A stretch of 64,000 nt of DNA, from contig JALGVJ010000011.1 of assembly GCA_029838195.1 (NCBI GenBank), forward strand, positions 32,001 through 96,000, written 5' to 3'. Position 1 is the first letter of the stretch. Every line of letters starts with the position of its first letter. The translations under genes and the position numbers were made by a program. Below the pieces are notes generated by a model that ran no database searches, was not told the origin of the DNA, and worked only from the letters and a program-made list of their open reading frames with translations. Positions 1,406-22,447 of the stretch are shown here, piece after piece. This stretch comes from Promethearchaeota archaeon. GTDB taxonomy: Archaea; Asgardarchaeota; Lokiarchaeia; Sigyniarchaeales; SOKP01.

Positions 1406-4015
1406 ATGACTTCCAAGCAAGATTCTTCGAAAAATTCTAAAAAACAATTAATAAAACAAGAAGCCGTTAAAAAGTATAACACAGAAACTCTTCCTTTTGA
1501 TGCAGTTTCCGATGAACCAAGGGAAACAAGAAAATCTACTTTAGAAATTGATAAATACATCTCGGATAAACGGATTTTACGTGTATTACTAGAAAACAAT
1601 ATTTTCGAATTAAGAGAAATCCAAAAAGTTGCCATCAAGCAAGGTTTATTTTTCCAAAAATCGTTTTTAATTTGTGCCCCATCCGGAAGTGGTAAAACTC
1701 TAATCGGAGAATTGTGCGCCATCCACAACATTCTCGAGGATTTCGGAAAATCCATCTATCTCGTGCCTTTCAAGGCCTTAGCAACGGAAAAATACATTCA
1801 TTTCAAAAAGAATTATTCCCGATTTAATATTAAGATAGGGCTCAGTATCGGAGACTTTGAACTAAATGAAGAAGAGCTGAAAAAATCGGACCTTATCGTT
1901 ACCACCTACGAGAAAATGGACTCCATTTTAAGAAATTTCAATGAAAAAGATTGGATTCACGAAATTTCCACCATAATAATTGATGAAATTCACATGATAG
2001 GCGAAGAGGTACGAGGGCCCCGACTTGAATCTCTCATCATCCGATTAAACGAATTTCTTTATCATCCTCAAATCATTGGCCTTTCGGCTACTATCGCAAA
2101 TCCCGAATTTTTTAATGCATGGCTAAGTTCTTTAGGAAATAAGACCACTTTAATCAAATCAGATGTTCGACCTGTACCCCTTCATTACCGCATTGAAATC
2201 TCGGGCAATAAAACGGCTACCATTCGCAAGTATATCAAGGCTATCTTGAGTCAAGAAGGGCAAGTATTAATATTCGTGAACACCCGAAAAGATTCGCAAG
2301 TGCTCGCTCAAGAATACATGAAACTAATTCCACACTTTTTAAAACCCGAAGAAAAAGAAATATGTAAAAGATTGAGCAAGAAACTCGAAAAAACGAATGG
2401 AAATAACAAGGAATTGGAACGCATGGTTTCTCACGGCATCGCCTTTCACCACGCGGGACTATTACCAAAAGAACGCAAGCTCGTAGAGGATAATTTTCGA
2501 AAACGCAATATAAAAGTCATTTGCTGCACGACCACGCTTTCTGCAGGTGTGAACACGCCGGCACGATTAGTCATCCTAAAAAAATTCAAGAAACACGTTA
2601 CTTCCGGGTATAATCTTACCAATTTTTCCGGCTATTTCGAAACGGGCGATGGCTTTTCTTTTTTCAAACCTTTTTCTGCTAATGAAGTATTCCAAATGCT
2701 CGGAAGGGCAGGACGACCAGGTTTAGATCCCCTTGGCTATGGTATTATTTTAGTTAAAAATTTAGATGAAAAGCTATGGGTGGAGGATAACTATTTTCAG
2801 CCTTTGGGTTCTGATTATATTCTTAAACCTAAATATAATGATTTAGTTTCCACGCTTAACGACGTGAGCGTGCTAACCGAACAAGTCTTACTACGGATAT
2901 ATGAAGAAAAGCGGATTTCCTTAGAAAAGCTCAAGCAATTTTTTGAACGCACCTATTTTTATCATGAATTCAAAAATAGGGCTTCACGTCAAAATATTTC
3001 CATTCCCATTGAACAGCTCCTCATGATTAAGGAAATCAAGCCTGTAAACATTTTAAAAATGTATTCCGCAAGCAAGAATTTAGTTAATATTAAAAAGAAA
3101 ATAAAAAAAATCCAATTAAATGGTGTAACCAGTAGCAAGATTAGCGGCTATCTTCAAACGCAGTACGGCGTGTTCGAATGCTCGTTTCACGTAAGCCGGG
3201 GAATCACCTGCTCGTGTGGGTTTAAAAATGGATTTTCCGATAATTTTGGAAATACAAAAAACTTATTCGAGTTTTGCGAACACGTGCTTGCATTTTTGAT
3301 ATATCTCATTGAATATCCAGATCCGAAGGTCCAAAAATATGTTGAAGACATCATTCCAAAATCACTTCGAAGGCAATACATTCTAAATTATCTTTTAGAA
3401 AAGGGATTACTCAAGAAAGACGAAAAAAACACGTTTTTTTGTACGGCCTTCGGAAAATTAGTAATTCAACTCTACATTGCTCCTTCCTCTGCAGTGTTGA
3501 TTCGGAAAAAATTGGAAAATAAAAGCATCAACACCTACATGGAACTACTAAAAGAAGCATTTAACATTTTAAAAGAAGAGGGTAAAGTGAGGAGAGATGA
3601 CTTTTTCGAACCCTTATTAGATTGGTGCGATGAAGTTCCTTTAGATGAAATTTTAGATCGATATAACATCATGGCGGGAGATTTGTTCACGCTCAGAGAA
3701 AACGTGGTTAGGAACATTATTTTCATTCAAAAAATTGCCGAATTTTTATCCCGGACTGGCACGGACTTGCGCGAATCTATGTTTAACGTGATGGAAATGG
3801 CAGAAACGCTCAGCATTCGAGTAGAACATGGCATAAAAGAAGAGCTATTCGATTTAGTACTACGCTTAAATCAAGTGGGGCGAGTTCGGGCAAGAATTTT
3901 ATTCAATGCAGGGTATAAAAATGCTTCTGAAGTAAGAAAAGAAACTCCCTACACGCTTCACATAAGAACGGGTCTGGGAATTAATCTATGTAAGGCTATA
4001 TTAAAAAGTAAATAA
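1406..4015 (+). CDS. hel308: Ski2-like DEIH-box helicase (Hel308/Hjm) with an inserted SWIM Zn finger
   Basis: APSGSGKT, DEIH, LSAT, HHAGL, TTTLSAGVN, QMLGRAGRPG; C-terminal HhH (VGRVRARILFNAGY); CSC-x19-CEH insertion. Confidence 0.9.
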   Translation: MTSKQDSSKNSKKQLIKQEAVKKYNTETLPFDAVSDEPRETRKSTLEIDKYISDKRILRVLLENNIFELREIQKVAIKQGLFFQKSFLICAPSGSGKTLIGELCAIHNILEDFGKSIYLVPFKALATEKYIHFKKNYSRFNIKIGLSIGDFELNEEELKKSDLIVTTYEKMDSILRNFNEKDWIHEISTIIIDEIHMIGEEVRGPRLESLIIRLNEFLYHPQIIGLSATIANPEFFNAWLSSLGNKTTLIKSDVRPVPLHYRIEISGNKTATIRKYIKAILSQEGQVLIFVNTRKDSQVLAQEYMKLIPHFLKPEEKEICKRLSKKLEKTNGNNKELERMVSHGIAFHHAGLLPKERKLVEDNFRKRNIKVICCTTTLSAGVNTPARLVILKKFKKHVTSGYNLTNFSGYFETGDGFSFFKPFSANEVFQMLGRAGRPGLDPLGYGIILVKNLDEKLWVEDNYFQPLGSDYILKPKYNDLVSTLNDVSVLTEQVLLRIYEEKRISLEKLKQFFERTYFYHEFKNRASRQNISIPIEQLLMIKEIKPVNILKMYSASKNLVNIKKKIKKIQLNGVTSSKISGYLQTQYGVFECSFHVSRGITCSCGFKNGFSDNFGNTKNLFEFCEHVLAFLIYLIEYPDPKVQKYVEDIIPKSLRRQYILNYLLEKGLLKKDEKNTFFCTAFGKLVIQLYIAPSSAVLIRKKLENKSINTYMELLKEAFNILKEEGKVRRDDFFEPLLDWCDEVPLDEILDRYNIMAGDLFTLRENVVRNIIFIQKIAEFLSRTGTDLRESMFNVMEMAETLSIRVEHGIKEELFDLVLRLNQVGRVRARILFNAGYKNASEVRKETPYTLHIRTGLGINLCKAILKSK

Positions 4016-4051
4016 CAAATCTAATATTATAAATCTATTAATATGATTTAA

Positions 4052-6271
4052 TTAAATCTTCTCCTTTTTCTTTTTCTTTTTATTATATTCATAAAGGTTA
4101 TGAATCATGAACAATAACTCTTGAGAATCATCAAATATGAGATAATGAATCCCATGACTCTTGCAAAAGTGTTTTATTTTTTCTTTTACGACGATTTTTT
4201 CTCCTGATACGTGTTCTGAATAATTAGTGAAATCCATCGCCCAAAAGACTAACACGTACTTTTCTTGTAAGGTTTTATTCTGGAGTAGAAGCTCATGAAA
4301 ATTCATAGTAGATGGTTTCATGATTCGAATCAAAATACGGTCAAGTAAAATGATATCTGAGCTGGAAATAGTATCATTCAATCCATATTGTATTTTTTTT
4401 CGTTGTAAATATTTGCGGAGGCCATATTGAACGGTAAATCGAGAAGAAATCAAAATTCTGGAAAATTCTTTAGAAAAACTTAAAGAAGAATTTTTTATCA
4501 CGTATCTTTCTTGATCTTTTATCTCTTGACAAGAAGAGTTCATGAAAGAAGTTAATCGTGTTTGCGTCTTTTGGATTTTATATTTTTTTTTAGAATTTAA
4601 AACGGAAGTAGTAAAAGAAATATCTTTAGAAGTCGTATCTAAAAGAAAAAGGTGCCCCGAAGGGGAGGTTTTAGGCGCATTTGATTTTAATGTTCCTTCC
4701 ATGTGTTTTAGTTTTTTTAGTGCCACCATTAAATATACCTCATCATTAGTATCTTTCGTATAGAGCATGATAACTTTCCCTTCCCTATGACGAGCAGTGC
4801 GTCCTTTTCTCTGAATTAACCGAATTTCCGATGCCACGATATCATAAAAAATAACTATATCGCATTCGGCAATGTCCAAACCCTCCTCTCCTACGTTCGT
4901 GCTTACCAATACATTATACTTTCCATCCTTGAAATCTTGAAGTATTTTAATCTGTTCTTTTTGGCTCAAACCCTTATCGGCCTTTTTAGACGCTTGCCCC
5001 ACGAACCGCTTGGGCTGAATGCTCGGAAGCGATTTCAATTTTTCCACGATATTTTTCACGGAATCTCTTAACTTCACGAATACGATCACGCGAGATTCTG
5101 GATTAATAGTGAATTGTTTGGCTAATATTTTTTTTAAAAGGATGAGCTTGGGATGTAATAACATCTCTGATTTAAATACTTGATATTTTTTTAATTCCAA
5201 GAGTAAAGCAGTAAGCTTGGGATTGCTCGCAAGATATCTTTGAGCTTTGGAACTATTACTTTTCTTGGCTTCTGATTTTAATTTTTCCAAATAGACCAAG
5301 AGAATGTCTAATCCTTGTTGTTCGACAAGGGATTCCATGTGATACAAAATTAACGCTTGAGCTATGATGGATAAGGCTACATACACGTTCTTGCTGGGAA
5401 TACCTTGCTGGGTCATGGCAACGAGTTCAGAGCGTAATTCCACGAGTTTCTTTCTATATATTTTATCCTCAATATTTTGACTGTTTTTATCACTTTTAGA
5501 GGGAGGAATTACTCCCAAGCGATCCAAATAATATAATCGCTCTTTTATTAATTCGTGTATCACGTCCAGAGCTTTTTTCATGAGATCCGTGAGAGATACT
5601 CCCATCTTAATGACATCCATGGGCTTGATATACGATTTCACGTCAGCATCCGCACGTGAGCGGTAATGGATGTTCTCTAAAGGCACGTGCAAGATTTCGC
5701 ATAAATTTTCCACACTCTCGCGGGTGGCACCAGGGGATGCCGTAAGTGCAAGAATGTTTCCCTCTGGGTTTTGGATCATGTACTCGCTTGCCAAATACAC
5801 GTACGCATAATCTCCCGTGGCGTGATGAGCTTCATCAAAAATCATCAAGCACACCTGAAATAAGCTGTATTTTTGTTTCACAATGTCGTTTCGCAAGGTC
5901 TGTGGCGTGTAAAATAATATTTGATTTTCCGAAAAAAGCAAAGGACGTTCCTTAGGAGATGTCCTTCCCGTCAATATCACGAACTTCTCGGGAGGAATGT
6001 TTAAAAATCGTAAGAAAAATTCGTGGTGTTGGTCTATTAAGGGACGAGTTGGTGCCATTAAAATGATTTTACTGTCGGGAGGATAATATTCTAAAGTTTT
6101 TGCTGCGACCAATAAAGCAATGATGGTTTTTCCCAAGCCCGTGGGAATGATCACCAATGAATTCTTGTTCACGCATTGTTCCGCAATAGAAAGCTGATAT
6201 TCTCGCTTTTCAAGAAGCTCTTCCCTTAAATATTTGAATTCCTTTAACCGCAAATCTTCACTCGTTACCAT
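4052..6271 (-). CDS. hef: Hef/FANCM-family DEAH helicase with a degenerate C-terminal ERCC4-like domain
   Basis: REYQ, PTGLGKT, DEAHH, LTASPG, RFVGQ, GEEGLDI, QRKGRTAR; C-terminal domain lacks the ERK motif; QTRLTSFM PIP-like box. Confidence 0.9.
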   Translation of the reverse strand: MVTSEDLRLKEFKYLREELLEKREYQLSIAEQCVNKNSLVIIPTGLGKTIIALLVAAKTLEYYPPDSKIILMAPTRPLIDQHHEFFLRFLNIPPEKFVILTGRTSPKERPLLFSENQILFYTPQTLRNDIVKQKYSLFQVCLMIFDEAHHATGDYAYVYLASEYMIQNPEGNILALTASPGATRESVENLCEILHVPLENIHYRSRADADVKSYIKPMDVIKMGVSLTDLMKKALDVIHELIKERLYYLDRLGVIPPSKSDKNSQNIEDKIYRKKLVELRSELVAMTQQGIPSKNVYVALSIIAQALILYHMESLVEQQGLDILLVYLEKLKSEAKKSNSSKAQRYLASNPKLTALLLELKKYQVFKSEMLLHPKLILLKKILAKQFTINPESRVIVFVKLRDSVKNIVEKLKSLPSIQPKRFVGQASKKADKGLSQKEQIKILQDFKDGKYNVLVSTNVGEEGLDIAECDIVIFYDIVASEIRLIQRKGRTARHREGKVIMLYTKDTNDEVYLMVALKKLKHMEGTLKSNAPKTSPSGHLFLLDTTSKDISFTTSVLNSKKKYKIQKTQTRLTSFMNSSCQEIKDQERYVIKNSSLSFSKEFSRILISSRFTVQYGLRKYLQRKKIQYGLNDTISSSDIILLDRILIRIMKPSTMNFHELLLQNKTLQEKYVLVFWAMDFTNYSEHVSGEKIVVKEKIKHFCKSHGIHYLIFDDSQELLFMIHNLYEYNKKKKKKEKI

Positions 6272-6402: not shown

Positions 6403-9400
6403 TTACTCCGCACCCAATCGTTTCTTAATATACCACGAGCTAATGATAGTTAACCCCGGAGTAGACAACAACCCAATCGTTAAAGGCAACACGAAATTGG
6501 TATTTTCTAATACTTGAGGAATTCGTGGTGTTGTGGAATTTGAGGGATGATCAGTGTCATCAGGAGGAGAGGAGTCATCATTATTTCCTCCTTCTTGTCC
6601 ACCTGAAGGATCAGAATCATCTAAAGAACAATTAAACACTTGCTTTATAACGGTAATAGAAGTTTGATAGTAATTGCCCGCCGTATCGTTGGAATGAAAC
6701 GTGATGATAATTGTGGCATTTTCGTATGAATTCCACGCTTCCTTGTTAATGATTCCGCTATATTCATTGGACGTGAGATAATATCGATTCAAGCTTCCAT
6801 TGAACATATACCACGTTTCATGAACATTCCAATCTTCCACCTCAATTTTATATGAAGGCGCTTGCTCGCCGAAAATTAAATTATCTTTCGATGGCTGAAG
6901 GATCGTGATTATAGGTAGGATATTATCCTTTTGCAATCGTATGGTAGCATTAGAGCACGTGCCTGCCTTGTTTTTCACGATAAATGTTAAATCAATGCTT
7001 TCATTTCCAAACCGATTCCAGTGAGCTTGAGAAATTTGTCCTTGAACGTAATCATTCACGGAGTAATAGGGACTTTGAAGAGTAAGATGCGAGTTATTTA
7101 TCACGTACCAAAACGATTCCAAGATTTTGCCATTTAATTCAATTTCATAGCGTGGAGCTTGAATGCCGTGTAGCGACCCCTCGATAGGGGAATGAATAAT
7201 AATTGATGGATGAGAAAGCTCTTTATATAGAGTAATCACATCCGTACCATTATTTTTTTGAATGTCAGTGGCTTTAATTGTCAACGTGAGCGTACCATTT
7301 CCGAAAAAGTTCCAATCATCTTCAAAAATAGAATCATTGAATGTCCAAATCCCTTCTATCCGTTTCATTTCATTCAAGGATATCCATCGCTCTCTCTCAT
7401 GAGTGCCATTAGATAGCATTAAATACACCGCATCTAAATAGGTTTCGTTCACGTGGAAAACAAGAGAAGGTGTTTGCCAAGCATGATACGATTGATTCAG
7501 GGGGTTCTCAATCGACACCAACGGAATTTGCGTGTCATTGATAATCAACCCCAAAGAAACACTCATATCTGCCACCCAAGAGAGTGAAGCTTGAGGCACG
7601 TAAAATTTATCCCTTGTTCTATAAAATGAATGAAGCGAAGTAGAGTAGGTATTTAAAATTAAATTCCGGACCAGTGTGCTATTAAAAAACATGCCCAAAT
7701 CAAGCAATTCATTGATCTTATAAACGAGATATAACTCTTCCAGATTTGAATAAATTAGACAAGATTCTGCGTAATTCTTGATTTTTTGAGGATCAATCAA
7801 GCTTTCATTTACTAATTTCAATATGGCAAGTGATTGATAAGTCGTTTCCAGAATTTCTAAAGAATCCTCAGCTTCGGTACGATAAGTAGGCTGAAAGTAA
7901 AGTTCATCGGTAGTTTCCACCGCGTGAGAAAGAACGTAGTTTGTTAGGGCAGTCGTGTTTATATTCGTGTCAGAAATGTTTCCCAAGTTTAAATAACGAG
8001 CCAGCAAGTCCAAAGTCAATACAGAATAATAGGAATGTTCCAAGTATACATAGCTGTTTCTCAACTCGTTGGAAAGGTAAACATGAAATCCATCGGGAGA
8101 AAAGCCGCCCGTATTAGAATAGCCGGGTTCCATGAACTGACACGATTCAATATAACCCAAGATATCATTTATGGAGATCCCCGTTTCCAGTTCAAACTCA
8201 TCAAACAAGTCCAATTTGTAGAGCGTGTCAAGAGCATGATACATGGAGCGGGCGTTCACGGGAGCATTTAACTCGTGGACTCTCTCATGCGTGCCTCTCG
8301 TGTCGAATTCAAAAGGATGAGAATGATAGTATAGCTCGCCGCCGTCTATGTTCGTGAACAAGCTAAATTGATACACGTCAAACTGAGAATAATCCTTGAA
8401 GGATTGCTTGAATTGAGATAAGAGATAAGGAGCATCTAATTGGGTTAATAAGTTGTAATCATAATAATAAAATGCATTTATCAAGGAATTTAATTTCTCC
8501 AGGGTTGTATAATCGGGAGACATTAAGGAATATCCTCCATGAAACTTGAAAGATTCGAGTCCTTGAGCAATTTCATCTTTAACATCTTCAGTAAGAGAAT
8601 TCATAAAACCCGTCTCATTAATGGAACGAATAATCTGGTAAGTGTAAATGATTTCGTGATAAGGTATTTCCGTGGATTTATCCCAAATTCCCATGCTGTT
8701 TCGATGCGAGAGGAGGTAATTCGTGATTTCCGTGCTATTAATGTTCGGATTGTTGGCAAGACTGCCGAGATCCAATCCAAGAGCAGTTGCCACGAGATTG
8801 CAGTAATCCATATTAAAGTATTGTGAATGTGGGGCAATGACAAAGTAATCTTCTTGAGCATTGTATAAATAATCTAAATAAGAATTGAAATTAACCATGT
8901 TTATTTGATCCAAGCTATTTAGCAATTCTAACGATTTCACGCAATAATAAGAGGCTAATAAATTGGTTTCTTTAATAACAAGAGAATTGAACGAGGAATC
9001 CAAATCGTTGTAAAAGCCTCCTAAATGAATGCCCGCAACTGTTTCTTGTAAGCTTGCTAACCAAGAAATCAGTTCATTCTTCTCTTGAGCATGCGTGCTC
9101 CAATCCTCTCCTAATAAAAGCAGTGTTTTAATAGCAAAATAAGTGTTATCAGCGGTAGGCAAGGCTAGCTCTCCCGTGAGCGTGTCATCATAAGGTTGCC
9201 CGAGAAAACCGTGCTTTAATGGATGATAACAGCTCCAAATAAAATCAATAATGTTTTGTACATTAATCTGGTCCAATTCATTGAAAATACCAAGAGATAA
9301 AGTGGCATGGCAATTTATTTCCAAGTAAGAAGTCAATGGTGGGGGATCATCTTTAGCTAAATCAGTATCCAAATATCTATCGGAATAAGAATCCGAGAAA

Positions 9401-11310: not shown

Positions 11311-11329
11311 TATTTAAAGGAAAAAAAAA
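11311..11329 (-). promoter_or_regulatory. T-tract/TATA promoter (T9-CC-TTTAAATA) for the surface protein
   Basis: About 70 nt upstream of the start, correct orientation. Confidence 0.6.
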
Positions 11330-11583: not shown

Positions 11584-11602
11584 TTTTTTTTTTCTTTAAA
11601 TA
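11584..11602 (+). promoter_or_regulatory. T-tract/TATA promoter (T10-C-TTTAAATA) for radA
   Basis: Followed by SD GGTGA (11643-11647) and TTG start at 11658. Confidence 0.7.
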
Positions 11603-13430: not shown

Positions 13431-13643
13431 ATGGACCTGGAATTATGGATGGAAGTATTTGAGTTTTTACTTGCTGTAGGTTCGATTTTAGGATTAATTG
13501 GATTTATTGTAGGTCTCCTCATCTTGTTTTTCTCAGGCCCCCGTAGCAAAGAAAAATTTATTCCCTTCCTCTTGATTTGCTTGCTTTTATTAATTATTTG
13601 CGGATGGAATGCGGGCTTGCGATATTTTAGAATTAATTTTTAA
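13431..13643 (+). CDS. 70-aa two-TM-helix membrane protein (paralog of 29565)
   Basis: Two hydrophobic helices; shares EFL.AVGS..GL.G and CGW..GLRYF with 29565. Confidence 0.8.
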   Translation: MDLELWMEVFEFLLAVGSILGLIGFIVGLLILFFSGPRSKEKFIPFLLICLLLLIICGWNAGLRYFRINF

Positions 13644-13797: not shown

Positions 13798-14745
13798 ATG
13801 GAAAACAATTGCGAAATCCATTCCAATGGTTCCATTGAGATGATCAAGGCTTCTTTGCTTCAAGCGGGTTTTAGTGAGGAGGAGCTCGAAAAAGAGGTGG
13901 AGCGCAAGCGAGAGGAATTTGGCGGGTTCATTTCCGAAAAGGGTATCTTATTTTTGATTGCGAAAGACCACGACCTCCCTATCCGCTCTCCCGATATTGA
14001 TAGATCTTTATATGACTTGGTTGAACAAGAAGAAATCGATTATGACGAATTTAGGATTGATATTGCTCAGCTTGAGGAAGGGTTATCTAACGTGGTGATC
14101 ATCGGTAGAATTGTTAAAACTTATCCCATTCATTATTTTGCCCGTAAGGATGGCACCACGGGAAAAATAAGCTCATTCTTGCTTCAAGATAACTCTGCCA
14201 TGATTAAGGTGGTCATGTGGGACGACCTTGCGGATATTGTCAATGAAGAGGCATTTGAAGTGAATCAAGGGATTCGAGTTATTGGAGGTTATACCAAGAT
14301 GAATAAGGACCGCTTGGAAGTCCATTTAGGGAAAAAAAGCAGGCTGATGTTCCTCTCAAAAGAAGAAGCACGGGAGAAACAGCTCAGAGAAGCATCCGAA
14401 ATGCTTCCTTATGTTTCTCACACGAAAAACAATAAGGTCAGTGAGAAAAAACTATCTAAAAATGCCTATCTACCTTATCTTTCAGGCAAAGTACTGAATT
14501 TTACTTTTAAGGAATTTGATAGAAAGAAAATGGAAAAATCGTTTCTCTTAAAAATTACGATATTAGCGGAGGAAAACAAGGAATACATCGTGAATTTTTG
14601 GAAATTTGATGCTATAGAAGTCTTGAAGCTCATCGAAAAAGGCAATCTTATTTATTTAACCAATTTAAAAAGTAAAGAAAATCCCTATACTAAGGAAAAA
14701 GAATTTCATTATACGGATCGTTCTACTCTGAATATTTTAAATTAA
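13798..14745 (+). CDS. rpa: Replication protein A-like ssDNA-binding protein (N-terminal helical domain plus two OB folds)
   Basis: EFGGFISEKGILFLIAK N-domain; OB fold FARKDGTTGK...LQDNSAMIKVVMWDD. Confidence 0.8.
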   Translation: MENNCEIHSNGSIEMIKASLLQAGFSEEELEKEVERKREEFGGFISEKGILFLIAKDHDLPIRSPDIDRSLYDLVEQEEIDYDEFRIDIAQLEEGLSNVVIIGRIVKTYPIHYFARKDGTTGKISSFLLQDNSAMIKVVMWDDLADIVNEEAFEVNQGIRVIGGYTKMNKDRLEVHLGKKSRLMFLSKEEAREKQLREASEMLPYVSHTKNNKVSEKKLSKNAYLPYLSGKVLNFTFKEFDRKKMEKSFLLKITILAEENKEYIVNFWKFDAIEVLKLIEKGNLIYLTNLKSKENPYTKEKEFHYTDRSTLNILN

Positions 14746-14788: not shown

Positions 14789-15472
14789 TCATGAATTTGT
14801 CTTGTTTTTCGGAAGTTTAATGATTTCTCCCGTGTTGAGCTTGAGTATCACGTGTGTCGATGTTTCCATTAAGATTTTTGTTTTATTTTTTGGAGGAGCT
14901 TGATTTATTTTTTCGTTTTTCGAGGAATTAAGTTTTTCTTTTTTTATTAGATGATGTGTTTGATAATTAGGATTGTTAGTTTTTTCCATTAATCGTTGAC
15001 TTTTTCTTTTATTAGAATGTTTTTGAGATAATAAAGAATTTTTCTTTTTTGATCCGTGAAAAGTTGTTGCGGATTCGATCTTTTCTTGAAGAACATGGTT
15101 CATTAGCATGGAAAGAATGGTTATTTCAGGTTGAGAAAGTAATTTTTTGTACGTTCCTACTTGAATCATGACTATATAATTTCCACTTTTTTCGCTTTTT
15201 TTCCTATACACGTGAATGGGCGTTCCTTTCTCCTTGTATTGATGATATCCTTTCCATTCCTTTGAGTTGCCTTCTAATACCGAAAGAATTTGTGCTTGTT
15301 CCTCTAAAGATAATCGAACCACGCTGCCCTCTTGTTGCGAAGGCTTTTCCCACGTGCCGCTTTCTTTCTTTCGAATCATACGGAAAAACACGTAGGGAAG
15401 CGTATTTTTAGCAGAGTCGAAGAAAAGAGCGGTTTTCTGACCGAAAAAATTATAAATGTGTTGATCTCCCAT
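14789..15472 (-). CDS. Hypothetical protein, possibly a Whirly/PC4-like ssDNA-binding fold with a basic tail
   Basis: GQKTAL...W.....VRLSLEE...I pattern resembles Whirly; Lys-rich C-terminus; convergent with rpa. Confidence 0.45.
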   Translation of the reverse strand: MGDQHIYNFFGQKTALFFDSAKNTLPYVFFRMIRKKESGTWEKPSQQEGSVVRLSLEEQAQILSVLEGNSKEWKGYHQYKEKGTPIHVYRKKSEKSGNYIVMIQVGTYKKLLSQPEITILSMLMNHVLQEKIESATTFHGSKKKNSLLSQKHSNKRKSQRLMEKTNNPNYQTHHLIKKEKLNSSKNEKINQAPPKNKTKILMETSTHVILKLNTGEIIKLPKNKTNS

Positions 15473-15493: not shown

Positions 15494-15510
15494 TATATAA
15501 AAGAAAAAAA
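15494..15510 (-). promoter_or_regulatory. T-tract/TATA promoter (T7-CT-TTTATATA)
   Basis: 21 nt before ATG 15472. Confidence 0.7.
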
Positions 15511-15570: not shown

Positions 15571-15586
15571 TTTTTTTCTTTAAATA
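15571..15586 (+). promoter_or_regulatory. T-tract/TATA promoter (T7-C-TTTAAATA) for mglBA
   Basis: Upstream of the 15638/16203 operon. Confidence 0.7.
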
Positions 15587-15637: not shown

Positions 15638-16183
15638 GTGAAAAACATGCAAAAAACTCAATTGTGGAATAATGAAATCACTAAGATTTTAGATGCCATG
15701 AGATATGAATACAGCAAGCTGATTCGAAAAGGATATATTCACGGCTTAATCGTGGTTGACCAAGACGCTAAATTAATCGCCATGGATTCGCATTTCGACA
15801 AGTCTTTAAATTATTGGGACTTGAGTGCCATTGGGGCCGCTTTTTACGGTGTTGCCCGACAAGGCCAAGATTTTTTTGAAGCGTCCGAATTAGAACGAGC
15901 CAGCATCATTTATAATGACCTGCAGTTATTCGTGAAATCAATTGGAAAAGTTCAAATCGTTCCTAACAAAAAACGTGAAATTTTAATCGTAATTCTTTCC
16001 GATCGGGCTGTAAATTTAGGGCTTCTCATTCTCCAGATGAATCGATTTGCTCCCGAAATCAAAGAAGGCATTGAGAAAAATGCCTCCATTAAAAAAACTT
16101 TATCCATGAATGAAACAGAACTAAAAGAATATATCAAACAACTGAAGAACGGTTTATTTAATAATGCAGAAACTATACTATAA
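15638..16183 (+). CDS. mglB: Roadblock/LC7-domain protein (MglB-like)
   Basis: GLIVVDQDAKLIA, LSAIGAA helix, VNLGLL; immediately upstream of an MglA GTPase. Confidence 0.75.
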   Translation: MKNMQKTQLWNNEITKILDAMRYEYSKLIRKGYIHGLIVVDQDAKLIAMDSHFDKSLNYWDLSAIGAAFYGVARQGQDFFEASELERASIIYNDLQLFVKSIGKVQIVPNKKREILIVILSDRAVNLGLLILQMNRFAPEIKEGIEKNASIKKTLSMNETELKEYIKQLKNGLFNNAETIL

Positions 16184-16202: not shown

Positions 16203-16823
16203 ATGAATTCTTCCTTGACATCTAAAGATGTATTTGACTTTGGCTCAAGCCTTCTTCAGTTAAAAGTGGTATATTGGGGTCCCGGCGAATCGGGAAAAAC
16301 CACGAGTTATAACGTGCTCAAAGAAGAGCTTCGTTCTAAGAAGATTTCTCGAAGTATATCCGTGGAAACCACCGATGGCAGAACGCTCTGGAAGGATTGC
16401 ATGTATTTATCCTTTTCATTAAAGCTAAATAAGTTCACGTTTGATGTCGTCGTCCAGGTGGTCACGTGTACGGGTCAAGAACGGTTTCTCTCCACCCGGG
16501 AATACGTGTTAGATGGAGCTGATGGGATCGTTTTCGTGGCAGACTCCTCACCTTTAAAGCGAGAAGAAAACAAGCGGAGTTTTCGGGAACTCATGAGCTT
16601 CACGGCTTCGAATAACGTTCCTTACGTGGTTCAATTGAACAAGCGGGATTTATCTGATGCGATTTCTGAAGAAGAGTTTAAAAAAGATCTGGAATTACCG
16701 GAGGAAAAAGCGTATCCGGACGGCACGTTGGTGGTATATCCTACCATTGCCACGGAAAAAGTCAATGTTTTATATTGTTTTAAAGACTTATTGGGGCTTA
16801 TTTTATTTAAAAACTTCTTATGA
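16203..16823 (+). CDS. mglA: MglA-family small GTPase
   Basis: KVVYWGPGESGKTT, DGRTL (intrinsic Arg finger), TGQ, GADGIVFVADS, QLNKRDL. Confidence 0.88.
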   Translation: MNSSLTSKDVFDFGSSLLQLKVVYWGPGESGKTTSYNVLKEELRSKKISRSISVETTDGRTLWKDCMYLSFSLKLNKFTFDVVVQVVTCTGQERFLSTREYVLDGADGIVFVADSSPLKREENKRSFRELMSFTASNNVPYVVQLNKRDLSDAISEEEFKKDLELPEEKAYPDGTLVVYPTIATEKVNVLYCFKDLLGLILFKNFL

Positions 16824-16916: not shown

Positions 16917-16918
16917 GT

Positions 16919-17572
16919 TTGACTAAAAACTTCAGATTAAATAATAATATTCAATTAATCATTTACCACCTCGAAAGAAAAATGCCTTCTCTCATAGAAT
17001 ATCCTTCATTAAGTTATAAGGCAAAAAAAAAGCTGAAAATTGAAATTCTTGACCATTCGTTCAGGAAATATAATTTTCTAATGGAATCCTTGAGCATCTC
17101 CCGATTTGCCAAAATTCTACACCATTCTTTTTCTGAACATGATATTTCTGAAATACAAGAAGTTTTAAATAATTTTTCCGATGATTGGAAACGATACAAG
17201 ATTCGTTTTCAACTCACTACTAAATTATTACCCTTCCACGGAGAACCCCATTCAGTGCACGATTTGATGGAATATCGGTTCAATGTGTTACAGCAGCATT
17301 TAAAAGAACTATATCATATCGCTCCCATTTTCAATTTACAGCGGGCCACTCATAATGCAAAAGTATTATTAACAATGTTGGATCAAAAAAATTATTGTCC
17401 TGTCCTTAGCACGCAGTTGGCATTAATTTTATTTGTCACAGACACTCGAGACTCGTTGGTCAAGGAGGGTAAAAAGAAACCGATTTTACAAGTTAATATT
17501 CGGAATTTATGTAAAACTTCTGCTTACGCCTTTCATAGAGCACGAAACAAGTTAGGAATAAGTCGATTTTAA
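16919..17572 (+). CDS. TFB/TFIIB cyclin-fold-like protein without Zn ribbon (probable start 16982)
   Basis: C-terminus QLALILFVTD...ILQVNIRNLCKTSAYAFHRARNKL aligns by eye with the last TFB cyclin repeat and HTH. Confidence 0.55.
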   Translation: MTKNFRLNNNIQLIIYHLERKMPSLIEYPSLSYKAKKKLKIEILDHSFRKYNFLMESLSISRFAKILHHSFSEHDISEIQEVLNNFSDDWKRYKIRFQLTTKLLPFHGEPHSVHDLMEYRFNVLQQHLKELYHIAPIFNLQRATHNAKVLLTMLDQKNYCPVLSTQLALILFVTDTRDSLVKEGKKKPILQVNIRNLCKTSAYAFHRARNKLGISRF

Positions 17573-17650: not shown

Positions 17651-19687
17651 TTAAAAAAGCGTAACTAACTTTTCATATAAGAGAGATAAATACTGGAAAA
17701 TTTTTTCATATTTTTCACTACTGATAGAGATGGATTCTCCTTGAAGTAATTTTTTGTAGAGTGATTCCACGTACTTGATATTGGAAATCGGTGTCAAACG
17801 TTTTTTTAACATGTATTCTAATCCCATGAACGTTTCGGCAAGGTTCATAGTATCGATTTTTTCGGGAGCGATATAAGAGGGAGGCTGACTGCCGTTGAAA
17901 AATTTCTTGAATAATAATTTCATGAGTAATCCTAATGCCAACATCATGGTGCGAAAAGAGGGCTCATTCTCTCCTTGAGAAAAATATTTCTGACCCTGAC
18001 AAAAAATGGATTTAACTTCTTCTAATTTATCGTAAATATCAGTATTTTTTTCCCTCTCAGAATCCCTTTTTTCATGGACTTGCCGTGAGGTAGAAATACC
18101 ATTAGAAATGGGTATTTCATAATTTTTTAATTGAGATAAGCGTTCTTGTAATTGTTTTATTTTTTGATCAATAGAGTTCATGTGGAATCGGAGCGATCGT
18201 TCAAGTTCTAACAATGAAGGGACTTTTGGAACTTCAGATTTCTTAAGAATTTTTTGCTCTATTGGAGATGAATTTTCTTGTAAAGATGGAGAATGTTTTT
18301 CTTTGATTTGAGGAGAGAGAGCAGGCTCTTGTTTGATTTGGATGGGAGCGGATTCTTGAATGGATCCTTTTCCATTTGAGATGGTTTCATCAGCAAGATT
18401 AGAATCAGAATCTAAAGAATCAATATCAATGTGCTGAATTTCTAACTCAGGAAAAAAAGTTTTCATGTTATTTTCAAGATCATCTTTTTTAAGAAAAGAT
18501 TTTCTCTTTTCTTTTTCTTTTTTAACACGTTCACGTTTCTTATACGTTAATTCTTGAGGAAAATAATCCTCTTTTGGAGTAAAATTATTAAGATATGTCG
18601 AGCTTGATAGGGAAGTAAAAATGGAATCTATTTTATTTGGAGCAAGACCTAATGATTGTAAAAAAGAGTGAAGATCAAGCACGTGAGCTTCGCAAGGAAC
18701 AGATTTCAGCCATGTTCTTAAAAAATCTTCGGGCAATCCAAGTTTCCAATGATGTTGCCGCAAGTAGAGATATCGATTTTCGGGATTAATGAGAACCTTG
18801 TCTTCCAAATTTGCTGTATTTACATGTTCCAAACAGTATTCTTCCATGCAAGAAACGAACATTCGCTTGATAGTTGCTGGTAAATTTTTAAGGGCTCGAT
18901 ATTCCTCTCTATATTGCTGCAAAGGATCCTTTTTCTGAAGGAGTGGGTCACTTTTACTAATTTTTTCAATAGAAATGGAATCATCATCATTCAAAGAAGA
19001 AGCTTTTTTAAGAAGATGGCAAATACGGACATCATAAAAATGCTCCATAAACCTCAAGATTTTCTCTTGTTCATTCTCATCCTCATGGGATTTAGAAAGA
19101 AATTTTTGAATGCTTTTTATTGATTTTCCTTCATTTAACAAAATAAAAATCTGTCCTGCTAAATTTTTGATTTTTAAAAGATCATCCCGTAGGAGGTCAA
19201 GAGTCGGACACCTTTCAATTATTTTTTTTTCAAACGATAAATCTCTCGCAATAAAATCGTAATTTAAAAATTTTTTAGTCTTCTTATTATAAAGAATGAG
19301 AGGTTGTGAAGTAAGATTTTCAGAAGTGGCAGAAGAAGGAGATTGAATTGATGGAACAGCGAGTTTAGGGATAAGTTCTTTGGCATTTTCGCTGGTATTT
19401 AAGATGTAATGCAATGAAGGGTATTGCATGATTGCATAGATGTCTTTTAGATTTAGATTGTAGATGAGATAGAAATTGGGGATCGTGGAGTAGACATTCG
19501 CTTCTAAAATGTCATTCACGCTGGTTAGAGCCGTCGCATCGATGGGAATGAATGTATATCCTACGGTAAAAATCTCTAAAGCATTTAAGTATTTTAAGTC
19601 CACGTGGGGATAAATGAGCACGTTCCTCTGCTTGAAAAAAATTAAGTGTAGAAATTGGGCCGTGATGAAGTCGCTTTCCGTGTCCAT
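17651..19687 (-). CDS. Hypothetical 678-aa protein: globular N-terminus, low-complexity linker, coiled coil, possible HEPN-like helical C-domain
   Basis: Long ORF; SIDQKIKQLQERLSQLK coiled coil; C-terminal helical bundle without RxxxxH. Confidence 0.6.
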   Translation of the reverse strand: MDTESDFITAQFLHLIFFKQRNVLIYPHVDLKYLNALEIFTVGYTFIPIDATALTSVNDILEANVYSTIPNFYLIYNLNLKDIYAIMQYPSLHYILNTSENAKELIPKLAVPSIQSPSSATSENLTSQPLILYNKKTKKFLNYDFIARDLSFEKKIIERCPTLDLLRDDLLKIKNLAGQIFILLNEGKSIKSIQKFLSKSHEDENEQEKILRFMEHFYDVRICHLLKKASSLNDDDSISIEKISKSDPLLQKKDPLQQYREEYRALKNLPATIKRMFVSCMEEYCLEHVNTANLEDKVLINPENRYLYLRQHHWKLGLPEDFLRTWLKSVPCEAHVLDLHSFLQSLGLAPNKIDSIFTSLSSSTYLNNFTPKEDYFPQELTYKKRERVKKEKEKRKSFLKKDDLENNMKTFFPELEIQHIDIDSLDSDSNLADETISNGKGSIQESAPIQIKQEPALSPQIKEKHSPSLQENSSPIEQKILKKSEVPKVPSLLELERSLRFHMNSIDQKIKQLQERLSQLKNYEIPISNGISTSRQVHEKRDSEREKNTDIYDKLEEVKSIFCQGQKYFSQGENEPSFRTMMLALGLLMKLLFKKFFNGSQPPSYIAPEKIDTMNLAETFMGLEYMLKKRLTPISNIKYVESLYKKLLQGESISISSEKYEKIFQYLSLLYEKLVTLF

Positions 19688-19795: not shown

Positions 19796-20896
19796 TTATA
19801 TTGATTTATTCGAGAAAATCTCATCTAATGTAAGCTGAACATGCTTGGATTTTTTTCTGAATGTTTCAAACGCAGAAATACAAGAATGATATTTATTAAT
19901 TAACTTATTTAAATTGTTTTCTACTCGAGCTTGATTGAGATGATGGTCTTTACAAAGAAAGGCACGCACTTTTTCTCTTATGGGAGCCGTCCAAGTGAAC
20001 GGTTCTTTTGGCGTGATTACTTCAGGAAAGAGAAAAATGTTCCGAACCTTAAAAATTATTTCAGGCGTGAGAGAGGAGAAATAATAATTTTTATTTCTTT
20101 CACGGTCAATGATATTTTCAAGTGTTTCATGAGCTTTTATTAATTTCAAGGCGGTTTTTGATCCAACATGTTTGATGCCCGGAAAATAATCCGTTTTTAA
20201 TAATAAGACTAAATCAATGAGTTGAAAGTAATTAATTCCCATTAATTTAAGGCTTTTCTTGAGGTCATATAACTTAGGCTCAATTTTTTGATAAACCCAT
20301 TTATTTTTGATCTTTCTTCTCATGGACTTTGTTAAATTCTGAATGACGTGAGGACTTCCGAACAAGAGCGAATCAAAATCTTGAGAGTTCATGTAATCCA
20401 CGAGATGACTTTTTACTAAATGAGCACATTGAGCTTCAGCGGAAGAAGGAGATTCAATATAAGGTACACCCAATAAACTTAATAAAATTTTAGATTCTTC
20501 TACAACGGAAGGCCATAAAAATTCCTTGCTCAATCCGATTTGACGAGCTGTTTTCCAATCCTTGTTTTTTAAGGCTTTTTCGTGCATGCGTTTCGCATAT
20601 CGGAAGTCATTGAGTTGATCTTTAGTAATGATGCGTTTTAACTCCGAGACTTTGCCATCAAAACAAAACACAGGAAGAATCCGCTTTGAATACAAGAATA
20701 AAATCTTGTATAAAATTCCATAAAGGTGATTGATGACTCGCTGCGTTCTGTCAATGAATAAGGAATCGGTATTCTTAGCAGTGAAATTTAACGTGCTAAA
20801 TAAAAAATTAGGAGTATCAATTGCAATGACTGTTCCTTCCAAGGAGGTGAGAGAAATAGGTTCAGCATGGAGTAGGTCAGCAATTTTCACTCCCAT
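19796..20896 (-). CDS. fen: Flap endonuclease 1 family nuclease (divergent)
   Basis: MGVK start, IAID, FDGK, AEAQCA, SQDFDSLLFG, TDY..GI..VG.KTALKLI H3TH, C-terminal PIP QLTLDEIF. Confidence 0.88.
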   Translation of the reverse strand: MGVKIADLLHAEPISLTSLEGTVIAIDTPNFLFSTLNFTAKNTDSLFIDRTQRVINHLYGILYKILFLYSKRILPVFCFDGKVSELKRIITKDQLNDFRYAKRMHEKALKNKDWKTARQIGLSKEFLWPSVVEESKILLSLLGVPYIESPSSAEAQCAHLVKSHLVDYMNSQDFDSLLFGSPHVIQNLTKSMRRKIKNKWVYQKIEPKLYDLKKSLKLMGINYFQLIDLVLLLKTDYFPGIKHVGSKTALKLIKAHETLENIIDRERNKNYYFSSLTPEIIFKVRNIFLFPEVITPKEPFTWTAPIREKVRAFLCKDHHLNQARVENNLNKLINKYHSCISAFETFRKKSKHVQLTLDEIFSNKSI

Positions 20897-20917: not shown

Positions 20918-20932
20918 TATTTAAAGAAAAAA
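20918..20932 (-). promoter_or_regulatory. T-tract/TATA promoter (T6-C-TTTAAATA) for fen
   Basis: 21 nt before ATG 20896. Confidence 0.75.
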
Positions 20933-20952
20933 TCAGTATTAGGGAAAAATCA

Positions 20953-20966: not shown

Positions 20967-20988
20967 AATTTAATGAGTAGTTAAGAGG

Positions 20989-21624
20989 ATGATGGAAAAT
21001 GTAAATTATATTGAAAAAAAATTTCATGAAAACAATGTTAATGGAAATTTTATAAACCTTGGTGCGACTGATTTCAACCAAGAAATAGATAAACATGATG
21101 TAATAAATGTTCTATTACGTTATTTCTCTATTCCTGTCCTTAGAGCTTCTTCTAACCGCATGAAAACAGCAATGGTATCATTTTTAGCTCGAATTCTTAA
21201 TAAAAATAAATCATGGATTCGTGATTCTATAAACGAATTTTTAGAAAACTGCCAATCGTTTAAAGAGATTCTAAAACAAGAATTAAAAAAGTTGAAATTG
21301 GACGGATGCTTCGACCCCATCGAAACGCACATTAACCTCTTGAATCGCTTTCTCGAACAACTTCATTCCTTTACAAATGCGTTCGATATGGAACGTGCCA
21401 AGATAAACATGTTAATCCTCATTGATAAATTAGACGCTAAATCTAAGTTCATGCCTCTTTTTAACCTAAACATTCATCTTGCTTTTTTGATATATATTAC
21501 CGATGTTAAGGATTACGAGGTTTTGAGAGCTAATATTTCTCCTCTTAAGTTAGAAAATATTTGCTACATGACAAATTGTAAAGAAAAACAATTGTTTCAA
21601 TTAAAGGCGATCCTTTCTCCTTAA
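20989..21624 (+). CDS. TFB/TFIIB cyclin-fold-like protein, distant paralog of 16919
   Basis: HLAFLIYITD...LKLENICYMTNCKEKQLFQLKAIL versus QLALILFVTD...ILQVNIRNLCKTSAYAFHRARNKL. Confidence 0.5.
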   Translation: MMENVNYIEKKFHENNVNGNFINLGATDFNQEIDKHDVINVLLRYFSIPVLRASSNRMKTAMVSFLARILNKNKSWIRDSINEFLENCQSFKEILKQELKKLKLDGCFDPIETHINLLNRFLEQLHSFTNAFDMERAKINMLILIDKLDAKSKFMPLFNLNIHLAFLIYITDVKDYEVLRANISPLKLENICYMTNCKEKQLFQLKAILSP

Positions 21625-21652: not shown

Positions 21653-21691
21653 GAAAAAACTCATTTTATCTAATTATATTTATTACTTAAA

Positions 21692-22447
21692 CTATGGCAA
21701 ATAAAAGGTAATGCCTTGATCAGTAATTTCAAATTTTAACGAAATCTTTTTCTCATTATAATGGATGATTAACCTTCTAAGCCTACCATGTGAATGAGCT
21801 TCCATGAGATGAGGTGGAAAAAGCTCAAGAGTCACTCCCTTTATCCTCTCAAATAAAGAGGAATAAAAAACATTATCCTGAGAAGTAGTCGGATTCGTAG
21901 AAAACTCATGAATGAGAAATACAAGAATATTTTTAAATGAACAATAAAATAAGAGAGGCACCAATTGCTTTTCAAAAAAATCATTAATAATAACTTCTCT
22001 TATATTCATGTCCTCTTCCATGGATAAACGCAATCGCAAGTGATGAGAGATGTTATCCACGACCATACATTTGAGATAAGGAATATTAGGCAAGTATTTT
22101 TCAAGAAGTCCTTGAAAAAGTAATTCTTGTTTTTCATATGAAAGGAGGACAGAACGAGCCGGAAAAATGAAAAAGCGCTCATGAAGGGATGAAGATTTAT
22201 TATTATAAAATATTTCTAATTGTTTGAGTCGCTTAACGGGAAAATGTTCGGAAGCTTGAATCCACGCGCACGCATGACGTGATCCGAGTAAATGATAGAC
22301 TAAATAGAGAACAAGATTAGTTTTTCCGCTTCCTGCTTTCCCCTTTACATGAATGACATTTTCTCTTTTTAAAATAAGAGAAATAATTTCCAAGAGGTCT
22401 TTTTCATTCAAAATCTTTAAACTTCTTTTTTCTTTTTTTCGAGCCAT
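21692..22447 (-). CDS. radB: RadB-like / Rad51-paralog RecA-fold ATPase
   Basis: GKAGSGKT, WIQASEHF..KRL.Q, MVVDNIS; no N-terminal HhH domain. Confidence 0.65.
   Translation of the reverse strand: MARKKEKRSLKILNEKDLLEIISLILKRENVIHVKGKAGSGKTNLVLYLVYHLLGSRHACAWIQASEHFPVKRLKQLEIFYNNKSSSLHERFFIFPARSVLLSYEKQELLFQGLLEKYLPNIPYLKCMVVDNISHHLRLRLSMEEDMNIREVIINDFFEKQLVPLLFYCSFKNILVFLIHEFSTNPTTSQDNVFYSSLFERIKGVTLELFPPHLMEAHSHGRLRRLIIHYNEKKISLKFEITDQGITFYLP

Follow-up and report, generated by a model that had tools for sequence, protein, structure and literature searches.

A conserved genomic island of specialised recombination paralogs, membrane proteins, a divergent TFB paralog and a shared promoter class in a family of Lokiarchaeia

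Bacterial competence regulons, of the ComK, ComX or sigma-H type, co-induce RecA, SsbB, DprA, ComEA and ComEC. In haloarchaea, multiple paralogs of transcription factor B (TFB) partition the promoters of one genome. The TFB3 system of the Sulfolobales is linked with Ups pili and the Ced DNA importer; TFB3 itself is truncated and acts as a co-activator. Here, we describe an island of recombination, membrane and surface genes, with a very divergent TFB paralog and a sharply defined promoter element, in the genome of a Promethearchaeota archaeon (Lokiarchaeia; Sigyniarchaeales). The stretch analysed, below called the window, comprises 64,000 nucleotides (positions 32001-96000 of contig JALGVJ010000011.1, assembly GCA_029838195.1; C89 below), and all plain coordinates are window positions. 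The host bin measures 4.5 Mb and is 96.6% complete, with an estimated contamination of 7.9%.

Parts of this picture have precedents. A TFB3-dependent DNA-damage response of the Sulfolobales is described in the available text of PMC6101594. In Asgard genomes, a divergent second Fen1 ('Fen1-2') and further RadA copies have been reported on long branches beside the canonical ones (PMC12680538, PMC12722695). The accessible passages of these two papers treat Fen1 and RadA singly, and we found no mention there of the synteny, neighbourhood or C-terminal domain of RadA; the available neighbourhood and operon passages of the replisome paper concern the priL-priS and RFC genes only. In our literature search, neither the cluster nor the promoter nor the TFB paralog turned up in any paper. 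Single genes (Fen1-2, the extra RadA clades) are already known, as are TFB-paralog regulons and archaeal DNA import as kinds of system, and several of the links drawn here are unreported.

That the island is a dedicated, co-regulated and vertically inherited programme of specialised paralogs is well supported by its gene content, gene order and promoters. A preliminary description of the window had placed Hel308, Hef, RadA, RPA, FEN1, a RadB-like protein and a topoisomerase-type Zn finger between positions 1406 and 22447, and all of these were recovered at their claimed positions by the list of open reading frames and the Pfam/NCBIfam scans. It had also listed a separate putative single-stranded-DNA binder, which we did not identify besides the RPA-like protein. 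Its view of the genes as a dedicated set is borne out by higher-scoring copies of RadA, FEN1, Hef and RPA outside the cluster, by synteny in relatives, and by operons that share a private promoter with a TFB paralog residing among them. The island is larger than first described, however. It reaches at least position 33365 in the window and begins ~30 kb upstream of the window start, so that it occupies ~65 kb of the host genome (C89 1.7-65.4 kb, from 30 kb before the window to window position 33.4 kb), and the special promoter marks the region from ~30 kb before the window onwards. The window further contains Gtr1/RagA-type GTPases, a folliculin-like domain and ordinary metabolic genes (Pfam/NCBIfam scans of the open reading frames), which points to a chromosomal location. 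An Rfam scan of window positions 1-35000 matched no RNA family.

Neighbourhoods were compared in public contigs and in 11 GTDB genomes of five genera. The gene order is retained in at least 16 loci of five genera, all of one GTDB family (the 11 genomes and 5 further contigs), and the claim that the clustering is no accident therefore stands. Recurring arrangements are a 100-residue gene followed by hel308; a DUF1922 Zn-ribbon gene with hef, a 203-residue gene, a big secreted protein and the TFB paralog; a polytopic membrane protein, a 115-residue membrane protein and the RadB-like ATPase; radA; a surface-anchored protein of ~330 residues followed by the Zn finger; a 70-residue protein, fen1, a 217-residue protein and rpa; and a Roadblock-like gene, a GTPase and a homolog of the first half of a 678-residue window protein. 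In the host genome this conserved array is rearranged and scattered over C89:1.7-65 kb. Synteny, which the preliminary description had proposed to check across the Lokiarchaeia, was thus found across five genera of one family, and of the sampled families one had the full set.

The distribution of the individual proteins shows the same restriction. Among the sampled Asgard genomes, orthologs of the island RadA (at least 64% identity) are confined to the window's GTDB family, all other matches having at most 47% identity. A profile search detected the TFB paralog in 19 of the 20 genomes of this family; the 100 genomes searched from 24 other Asgard families all lacked a match. In the sampled sister family of the same order (2 genomes), neither protein was found. 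Submitters' labels (Thor, Hermod, Odin, Hod) on RadA proteins of this type with 67-70% identity had hinted at an Asgard-wide spread; the GTDB-based sample did not support this, its orthologs being confined to one family.

The TFB paralog (23460-24851, + strand; 463 residues) is very divergent, with a recognisable Zn ribbon and cyclin repeat 1. Its N-terminus matches Pfam Zn_Ribbon_TF with an E value of 0.0011, below the cut-off, and among 15 orthologs the ribbon cysteines C20, C34 and C37 are invariant and C17 is nearly so. A profile of these 15 orthologs matches cyclin repeat 1 of human TFIIB (residues 105-197; E 6.8e-5) and of Pyrococcus TFB (1D3U; E 0.006). Beyond profile position 187, where a second cyclin repeat with the BRE-reading helix-turn-helix would be expected, the profile matched no known TFB, although the orthologs are conserved there, and the Pfam TFIIB model PF00382 misses the protein. 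The host genome has an unusually large TFB complement, consisting of eight ordinary genes with two cyclin repeats (PF00382) and three divergent ones.

The special promoter TTTTTTCTTTAAATA, here called the T6C class, has a T-tract and a C immediately before the TATA box, where the TFB-recognition element (BRE) normally sits. It heads nearly every operon of the island whose upstream region was read, including radA (11588-11602, + strand), which has the maximum score of the weight matrix, and the Roadblock-GTPase operon (15572-15586, + strand). The element is conserved across genera, being present before radA in 11/13, before znf105 in 12/14 and before the Roadblock gene in 7/7 cases, and at 10 of 12 loci before the polytopic membrane gene that heads the RadB-like operon. 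It was found before none of the internal operon genes and before 0/14 of the TFB-paralog genes. The special promoters show a peak of A 22-23 nt downstream of the TATA box, which is likely the transcription start site. Genome-wide, TTTTTC precedes the TATA box in just 14 of the 940 TATA-bearing upstream regions of long open reading frames. The exact 14-mer occurs 20 times in the genome, with 6 occurrences on C89 and 5 on contig C50. A weight matrix built with the loci on C49 and C50 left out finds 290 genome sites, of which C89 holds 33. Of the 27 best, 10 are no more than 10 kb away from one of the three TFB-paralog genes, an area equal to 1.4% of the genome.

Because of this co-location and the co-distribution of factor and element, we infer that the TFB paralog reads the T6C element and directs RNA polymerase to T6C promoters. 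Its own promoter is ordinary, A/G-rich with a TATA box (AAAAGGTTTAAAAAG), both in the window (~23380-23440) and at the orthologous loci. It is followed by a CAAACTCC box and a pyrimidine-rich stretch, conserved across genera, and this box is possibly the control site of the switch. In genus g4 (genome G040, loci L023/L024), where the TFB paralog is most divergent, 4 of 5 sites carry A or G in place of the promoter's C. Factor and element may co-vary in this genome, with numbers too small to count as evidence.

Paralogs elsewhere in the genome set the cluster enzymes apart. The host has six matches to the Rad51 family, three of which are RadA genes, and the cluster RadA scores lowest of these on PF08423 (252 bits, against 327 and 320 for the full RadAs on C7 and C1). 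With tblastn we found additional genes for Hef (C91, C19), FEN1 (C46), RPA (C37) and Hel308-like proteins (C70, C42). The outside FEN1, both outside RadAs and the outside Hef exceed the NCBIfam cut-offs, whereas the cluster copies fall short: 293 bits for the cluster RadA on the TIGR02236 equivalog model (cut-off 361; outside copies 446 and 433), 273 for FEN1 on TIGR03674 (cut-off 352; outside copy 435) and 563 for Hef on NF010337 (cut-off 610; outside copy 903). The outside paralogs lack the special promoter. For RadA, FEN1, Hef and RPA, the housekeeping copies that the preliminary description had suggested looking for are thus present elsewhere, but no other Hel308 in the genome scores as high as the cluster copy. 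We rejected contamination as an origin of the extra paralogs, since relatives have the same three RadA types and the cluster on single contigs.

Outside the window, C49:14.7-29.2 kb is a segmental duplicate of the membrane and TFB half of the island, with 70-88% protein identity. It holds a TFB paralog, the 133-residue membrane protein, a truncated RadB-like gene of 86 residues and a 70-residue two-helix protein (compare window 21692-24851), together with proteins of 354, 119, 1303 and 468 residues and the 678-residue helix-hairpin-helix (HhH) protein. It may represent a genuine paralogous copy, or the bin may contain a second strain. A third copy of the TFB paralog lies at C50:38-54 kb, with 45% identity and a shorter open frame. 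It is surrounded by paralogs of the big secreted protein (1305 residues) and of the 411-, 354- and 119-residue proteins, and by five T6C promoters of maximum score.

Several enzymes of the cluster had been described as carrying atypical domains or substitutions, and these are genuine: the C-terminal HhH of RadA, SPSSAE in FEN1, and a Hef without ERKxxxD and HhH2. The RadA paralog (11658-12914, + strand; Pfam/NCBIfam), hereafter RadA-HhH, carries an HhH domain (HHH_5) at both ends. Its Walker A motif GPFKSGKT is invariant in 119 and its C-terminal HhH present in all of the 120 listed homologs, and the Walker B motif (hhhhDS) is conserved. It reaches 334 bits on PRK04301 (cut-off 259), covering profile positions 5-315. 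The homologs are 66-76% identical, and RadA-HhH is evidently under purifying selection. At 50% identity it stands apart as a single cluster, and the best full-length match after it has 232 bits against 621. In our tree, the RadA-HhH clade is fully supported, has a long stem (0.86) and is not sister to the other two RadAs of the host. Its neighbours are RadAs labelled Jordarchaeales and Odinarchaeota by their submitters, and fungal Rad51 and plant Dmc1 form a separate clade. This tree agrees with the accessible text of PMC12722695, which reports extra Asgard RadA clades and no Rad51/Dmc1 split within archaea. A 213-residue protein at 49538-50179 has a C-terminal HhH 44% identical to the extra C-terminal HhH of RadA, and may represent a donor or a relative of that module.

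The Hef-type helicase (4052-6271, - strand; Pfam/NCBIfam, alignment) has a C-terminal ERCC4-like region and a FANCM-like layout. All of its superfamily 2 helicase motifs are intact (PTGLGKT, DEAHH, TASPG, QRKGRTAR). ERKxxxD and HhH2 are missing from 7/7 aligned cluster orthologs, and the paralog on C91 has both; judged by these motifs, the cluster Hef is nuclease-dead. A separate XPF with an ERCC4 domain is located 4 kb upstream of the window. The helicase Hel308 (1406-4015, + strand; Pfam/NCBIfam) is a long form of 869 residues, with 55-63% identity within the window's family and at most 38% outside. On the NCBIfam Hel308 model it scores 422, and the outside copy on C70 scores 186; neither reaches the cut-off. 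Its TATA box at 1374-1381, which the preliminary description took as a canonical promoter, was confirmed; in relatives, hel308 follows the 100-residue gene that bears the special promoter. In the window, this conserved upstream partner is a CxxC protein (1002-1304, + strand) with the special promoter at ~977-991, and 3 of 4 orthologs have the promoter.

The FEN1 paralog (19796-20896, - strand; Pfam/NCBIfam, alignment; promoter 20918-20932) retains 6 of 7 active-site carboxylates. The first Glu of SEGEAQ, as it reads in the canonical FEN1 of the host genome, is replaced by Ser (SPSSAE) in 11/11 aligned orthologs. These orthologs share 48-53% identity inside the window's family and at most 42% outside. 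The C-terminal QxTLDxIF, a tail resembling a PCNA-interacting peptide (PIP) and similar to that of the canonical copy, is retained. The beta-pin deletion is absent, as the available text of PMC12680538 reports for the 'Loki-2' clade, to which the window FEN1 would therefore belong.

The RPA-like OB-fold protein (13798-14745, + strand; 315 residues; Pfam/NCBIfam) is divergent from the 574-residue RPA on C37. The topoisomerase-type Zn-finger protein znf105 (13079-13396, + strand; 105 residues; NCBIfam PRK07220, E 9e-7) heads, in relatives, an operon with the surface-anchored protein of ~330 residues. The RadB-like ATPase (21692-22447, - strand) has the Walker A motif GKAGSGKT, and its family profile matches Rad57, RadA, XRCC3 and RadB. 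Judged by the conserved operon, its gene is co-transcribed with two membrane proteins.

Membrane and surface genes, which had been noted as interleaved with the enzymes, turned out to be conserved members of the island. Upstream of the window, the island encodes a 1303-residue protein with predicted N-terminal membrane helices, polytopic membrane proteins, a 678-residue protein with an N-terminal HhH and two predicted membrane helices, a DUF1922 Zn-ribbon protein, an E1-like ThiF protein and XPF. By language-model similarity (0.92-0.94), the 1303-residue protein resembles clusters of the HerA, FtsK and VirB4 classes, one of which bears the name CedB, and Pfam DUF87 weakly matches its paralog on C49 (E 0.003). 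Residues 380-1000 (mean predicted local distance difference test, pLDDT, of the model 61, with a confident core) match the HerA translocase 4D2I in Foldseek with an E value of 1.7e-10. In all 8 of 8 members of this HerA-fold family, xRE stands in place of the P-loop GKS/T, and without the P-loop lysine the protein is probably not an ATPase. In two relatives, the genes for the HhH protein, proteins of ~220 and ~290 residues and the HerA-fold protein are co-directional and adjoin the 100-residue gene and hel308. At locus L037, a homolog of the 411-residue window protein comes after the HerA-fold gene, and the hef operon also adjoins hel308; at locus L038, homologs of a 142-residue protein and of the 1214-residue window protein follow instead. 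By these positions, the 1214-residue and 411-residue genes of the window belong to the HerA-fold membrane operon. By their predicted helices, the 70-74-residue two-helix proteins and the polytopic proteins of the island are candidates for the VirB2-like pilin and the VirB6-like protein of a Ced/Ted-type importer. The island also includes a 1515-residue protein with DUF4011, superfamily 1 helicase (AAA_11/AAA_12) and MTES_1575 nuclease domains (C89:14156-18703, locus L031), which has no T6C promoter.

The preliminary description had also reported MglAB genes, of which MglB is identified by indirect homology. The MglA-like protein (16203-16823, + strand) is a small GTPase of the Arf/Ras superfamily (Arf E 2.4e-10, with Ras and Roc matches and Walker A at residue 26). 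Its 181-residue partner (15638-16183, + strand) had no Roadblock match in a Pfam scan of 8 orthologs or in a profile search against the PDB. Its structural model (pLDDT 41) has an alpha-beta-beta-alpha-beta-beta order. A homolog in genome G038 (30% identity, E 6e-18) matches Robl_LC7 with an E value of 3.7e-4 (20.6 bits, against a cut-off of 23), and the 181-residue protein is probably Roadblock/MglB-like.

G038 is a closed genome of a second Asgard family, f18, which has a simpler cluster (C1:2,517,000-2,533,000; loci L044/L045). Here a packed array encodes, in order, a 632-residue protein, Hel308, a Zn-ribbon protein, a RadB-like protein, a 446-residue protein, a TPR protein, FEN1, the Roadblock protein, the GTPase and a 240-residue protein, and a third RadA gene adjoins the array on the opposite strand. 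The Walker A motif of this RadA (GPAKAGKT) is akin to that of the window (GPFKSGKT) and unlike the canonical GEFRTGKT. The FEN1 of the array keeps the catalytic Glu-Gly-Glu and, unlike the window copy, lacks 12 residues where the beta-pin would lie, which fits 'Fen1-2' as given in the accessible part of PMC12680538. The special promoter was not found at the G038 cluster. The f18 cluster suggests that a soluble core linking recombination genes to the Roadblock-GTPase pair predates the window's family. This family either added the TFB paralog, promoter and membrane operon to it, or kept them while others lost them.

Other window genes of the island are less readily assigned. The window opens within a gene on the - strand (2-901), which encodes the first 300 residues of a 423-residue protein with one predicted membrane helix and has a special promoter at ~922-936. 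A secreted, very acidic protein of 1612 residues (6403-11241, - strand; special promoter ~11311-11325) combines an alpha-alpha toroid (Prenyltrans match) with beta-propeller repeats. A 70-residue protein with two hydrophobic helices (13431-13643, + strand) has paralogs on C49 and at 29565-29786 (+ strand), the latter a 73-residue two-helix membrane protein with a special promoter upstream. Basic proteins of 227 residues (14789-15472, - strand; special promoter ~15494-15508) and 217 residues (16919-17572, + strand) follow; the latter lies between fen1 and rpa in relatives and is a paralog of the 211-residue protein at 20989-21624 (+ strand). A TFIIB-cyclin-like identity considered for this pair was not supported, as a profile search gave no match. 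The 678-residue window protein, a homolog of whose N-terminal ~350 residues follows the GTPase in relatives, is encoded at 17651-19687 (- strand). The gene for a 133-residue two-helix membrane protein (22404-22805, - strand; special promoter ~22808-22822) overlaps the RadB-like gene. The 1214-residue protein (25430-29074, - strand), whose homolog ends the HerA-fold membrane operon at L038, gave nothing usable in an Atlas search (0.80), and the 411-residue protein (32130-33365, + strand) has a special promoter upstream. For the 203-residue protein of the hef operon, profile matches were at noise level only (TFIIH Tfb2, E 0.036). Beyond these genes, positions 34500-35033 encode a SLOG cluster-4 (LDcluster4) protein, which is the sole, sub-threshold match to the DprA family in the genome and not a DprA. 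Three Gtr1/RagA-type GTPases lie within 10 kb (38139-39059, 41758-42717 and 47138-48553), one with a fused folliculin-like N-terminal region.

What might such a programme do? As far as can be judged from genes alone, the regulon would combine three groups: specialised enzymes of recombination and branched DNA (RadA with two HhH, the RadB-like ATPase, the FEN1 paralog, the RPA-like protein, the nuclease-dead Hef with a separate XPF, and the long Hel308); membrane and surface parts (the HhH membrane protein, polytopic proteins, the HerA-fold protein, two-helix mini-proteins and giant secreted proteins); and the Roadblock-like protein with its small GTPase. Once the TFB paralog is made, the cell would assemble an apparatus that handles DNA at the membrane, alongside a separate line for recombination. 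In this scheme, HhH and Zn-finger proteins and the HerA-fold ring would hold DNA at the membrane; Hel308, Hef/XPF and FEN1 would process it; the RPA-like protein would coat it; and RadA-HhH would pair it, with the RadB-like protein as mediator. DNA exchange or import coupled to recombination is the programme that we tentatively favour, because modules that bind DNA are, time and again, fused to membrane proteins or transcribed together with them, because the secreted giants have the same promoter, and because housekeeping copies cover ordinary repair. The interpretation offered in the preliminary description is thus supported in part: a dedicated recombination set is present, and import or exchange of DNA is a plausible role for it.

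Several observations weigh against DNA exchange or import. The island seems to contain no intact DNA-translocating ATPase. The preliminary description had seen neither a DNA-transport ATPase nor ComEC in the window; the HerA-fold membrane protein lies outside the window and lacks the P-loop lysine, and the bona fide HerA genes of the host lack the special promoter. A PF03772 search of the genome gave no match to ComEC, and for DprA (PF02481) there was one sub-threshold match of 17.5 bits, on the SLOG protein. No pilus genes were identified in the island, where the two-helix proteins are pilin-like by architecture alone. A search for HAP2 was blank too, but so were the control genomes, which makes it uninformative. 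Since the cluster Hel308 is the best Hel308 of the genome, the island is not purely a set of spares, and the PIP-like tail of FEN1 fits PCNA-coupled intracellular repair. No HerA-fold or HhH membrane operon was found within the 40 kb examined at the f18 cluster, and a soluble set for repair may thus have been the original core. The excess of the 14-mer over a backwards control is modest (2.8-fold in genomes of the family, 1.5-fold elsewhere), and inducibility of the island is something that we infer.

These points lend some weight to a regulon for the cell's own chromosome, in which stress or damage would induce repair and fork restart. An alternative TFB would turn on back-up or specialised forms of Hef/XPF, Hel308, FEN1, RPA and RadA; the membrane proteins would anchor or arrange the nucleoid, or else sense the signal, and no DNA would cross the membrane. 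Hef/FANCM and Hel308/HELQ act in stalled-fork and crosslink repair, and Hef, Hel308, FEN1, RPA and RadA together make up the classical set for these tasks. The PIP-like C-terminus of FEN1, a HerA-fold protein that is probably a pseudo-ATPase, and an f18 cluster that, over the region examined, has the soluble core and its GTPase pair but no membrane operon are all in line with repair. There is also the precedent of a TFB paralog driving a DNA-damage response, in the available text of PMC6101594. Yet conserved operons join HhH to membrane helices, a Zn finger to a surface-anchored protein, and a RadB-like ATPase to two membrane proteins; giant secreted proteins share the promoter; and canonical copies of most enzymes already serve housekeeping repair. 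We rank a repair regulon a little below DNA exchange or import, as its closest competitor. A bolder version of the exchange reading is somewhat more doubtful still. It would make the island a facultative sex-like programme, with a private TFB, a membrane transfer apparatus derived from HerA/VirB4, a dedicated recombinase line and positioning by the Roadblock-GTPase pair. Such a programme would parallel the meiosis-specific paralogs of eukaryotes with an independent origin, and its older soluble core would be shared with at least one other Asgard family.

Other origins and roles appear improbable. A long-domesticated conjugative or viral element would bring its own transcription factor, promoter grammar and replication/recombination genes, and the island has its own TFB and promoter class, divergent RadA, FEN1, RPA and helicases on long branches (RadA stem 0.86), membrane proteins that accompany a HerA/VirB4-class fold, many ORFans, a lower G+C content (25-26% at 26-32 kb), and copies of its parts on C49 and partly on C50. 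However, 19 of 20 family genomes have it, with conserved order; the open reading frames scanned gave no integrase match, and no tRNA was found in the window; and the nearest relatives of its RadA are Asgard RadAs (Jordarchaeales and Odinarchaeota by submitters' names). The related cluster in a second family implies that any acquisition is ancient and the island now a host trait, which leaves a mobile origin with little probability. A task in the cell cycle or chromosome management is slightly less probable again. It would comprise segregation, dimer resolution, gene conversion between genome copies, or clearing of DNA at division or fusion sites, by an FtsK-like ring and a polarity-type GTPase module. 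The layout of the 1303-residue protein (a membrane anchor and a HerA/FtsK-superfamily domain) and the link of the Roadblock-GTPase pair to recombination genes in two families would suit such a role, and a TFB paralog drives cyclic, cell-cycle transcription of Sulfolobus according to the accessible text of bioRxiv 10.64898/2026.09.06.749720. Against this, the P-loop is lost, the island genes scanned include no Xer-type recombinase or segregation ATPase, and restriction to one family would be odd for a universal task. Finally, chance grouping or an artefact of a mixed-genome bin might be suspected from the 7.9% contamination and from the C49 copy, which at 70-88% identity could be a second strain. 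The same order on single contigs in many independent assemblies, the promoter conserved across genera and the same three RadA types in relatives refute this in our view, and we give it next to no probability.

The locus matters in several respects. A sharply defined promoter element and its probable factor constitute a promoter code that is directly testable in vitro. The second Fen1 and RadA copies of Asgard archaea, so far phylogenetic markers discussed one by one, gain a physiological setting. The tie between a Roadblock-GTPase pair and recombination genes in two families is an unreported link, and the coupling of Rad51-family and HerA-fold proteins to the membrane is unusual. The results also call for caution in phylogenomics, since the FEN1 and RadA of the island are specialised paralogs, not housekeeping orthologs.

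Compared to described systems, the island comes close to the TFB3-Ups/Ced system of the Sulfolobales in that a TFB paralog is connected to a gene set for DNA damage or DNA exchange, in which membrane machinery and DNA-handling proteins are mixed (PMC6101594, in its available text). The likeness may also be seen in the parts. Both sides would have a membrane-anchored protein of the HerA/VirB4 class and small two-helix membrane proteins, as the Ced and Ups systems are generally portrayed. In contrast to TFB3, the TFB of the island appears to be full length (Zn ribbon and cyclin repeat) and a distinct conserved element lies beside the TATA box; moreover, the island has its own RadA, FEN1, RPA and Hef paralogs. 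It differs from Ced in a HerA-fold protein without P-loop lysine, with no sequence-level homology to Ced proteins shown and no pilus genes recognised.

The resemblance to bacterial competence lies in one dedicated factor, one promoter class, and a recombinase combined with a single-stranded-DNA binder and membrane DNA-binding parts, among which the HhH protein with membrane helices would be the analogue of ComEA. Conversely, ComEC was not found and DprA is represented by a weak sub-threshold match, the parts of the island are of archaeal or eukaryotic type, and the system is known here from its genes alone. Parallels with eukaryotes are of a similar kind. As with RAD51/DMC1 and the RAD51 paralogs, a second recombinase stands beside a general one, with a mediator resembling a Rad51 paralog. 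As with FANCM-FAAP24, XPF-ERCC1 and HELQ, a Hef with a dead ERCC4 domain is accompanied by a separate, active XPF and by a Hel308/HELQ helicase. These parallels imply no orthology, however, since RadA-HhH groups with Asgard RadAs, in agreement with the accessible text of PMC12722695. Like the multi-TFB regulons of haloarchaea, finally, the TFB paralogs of this organism would divide the promoters of one genome. The difference is that here a single, extremely divergent TFB is embedded in its presumed target island, and that its targets carry a sharply defined element.

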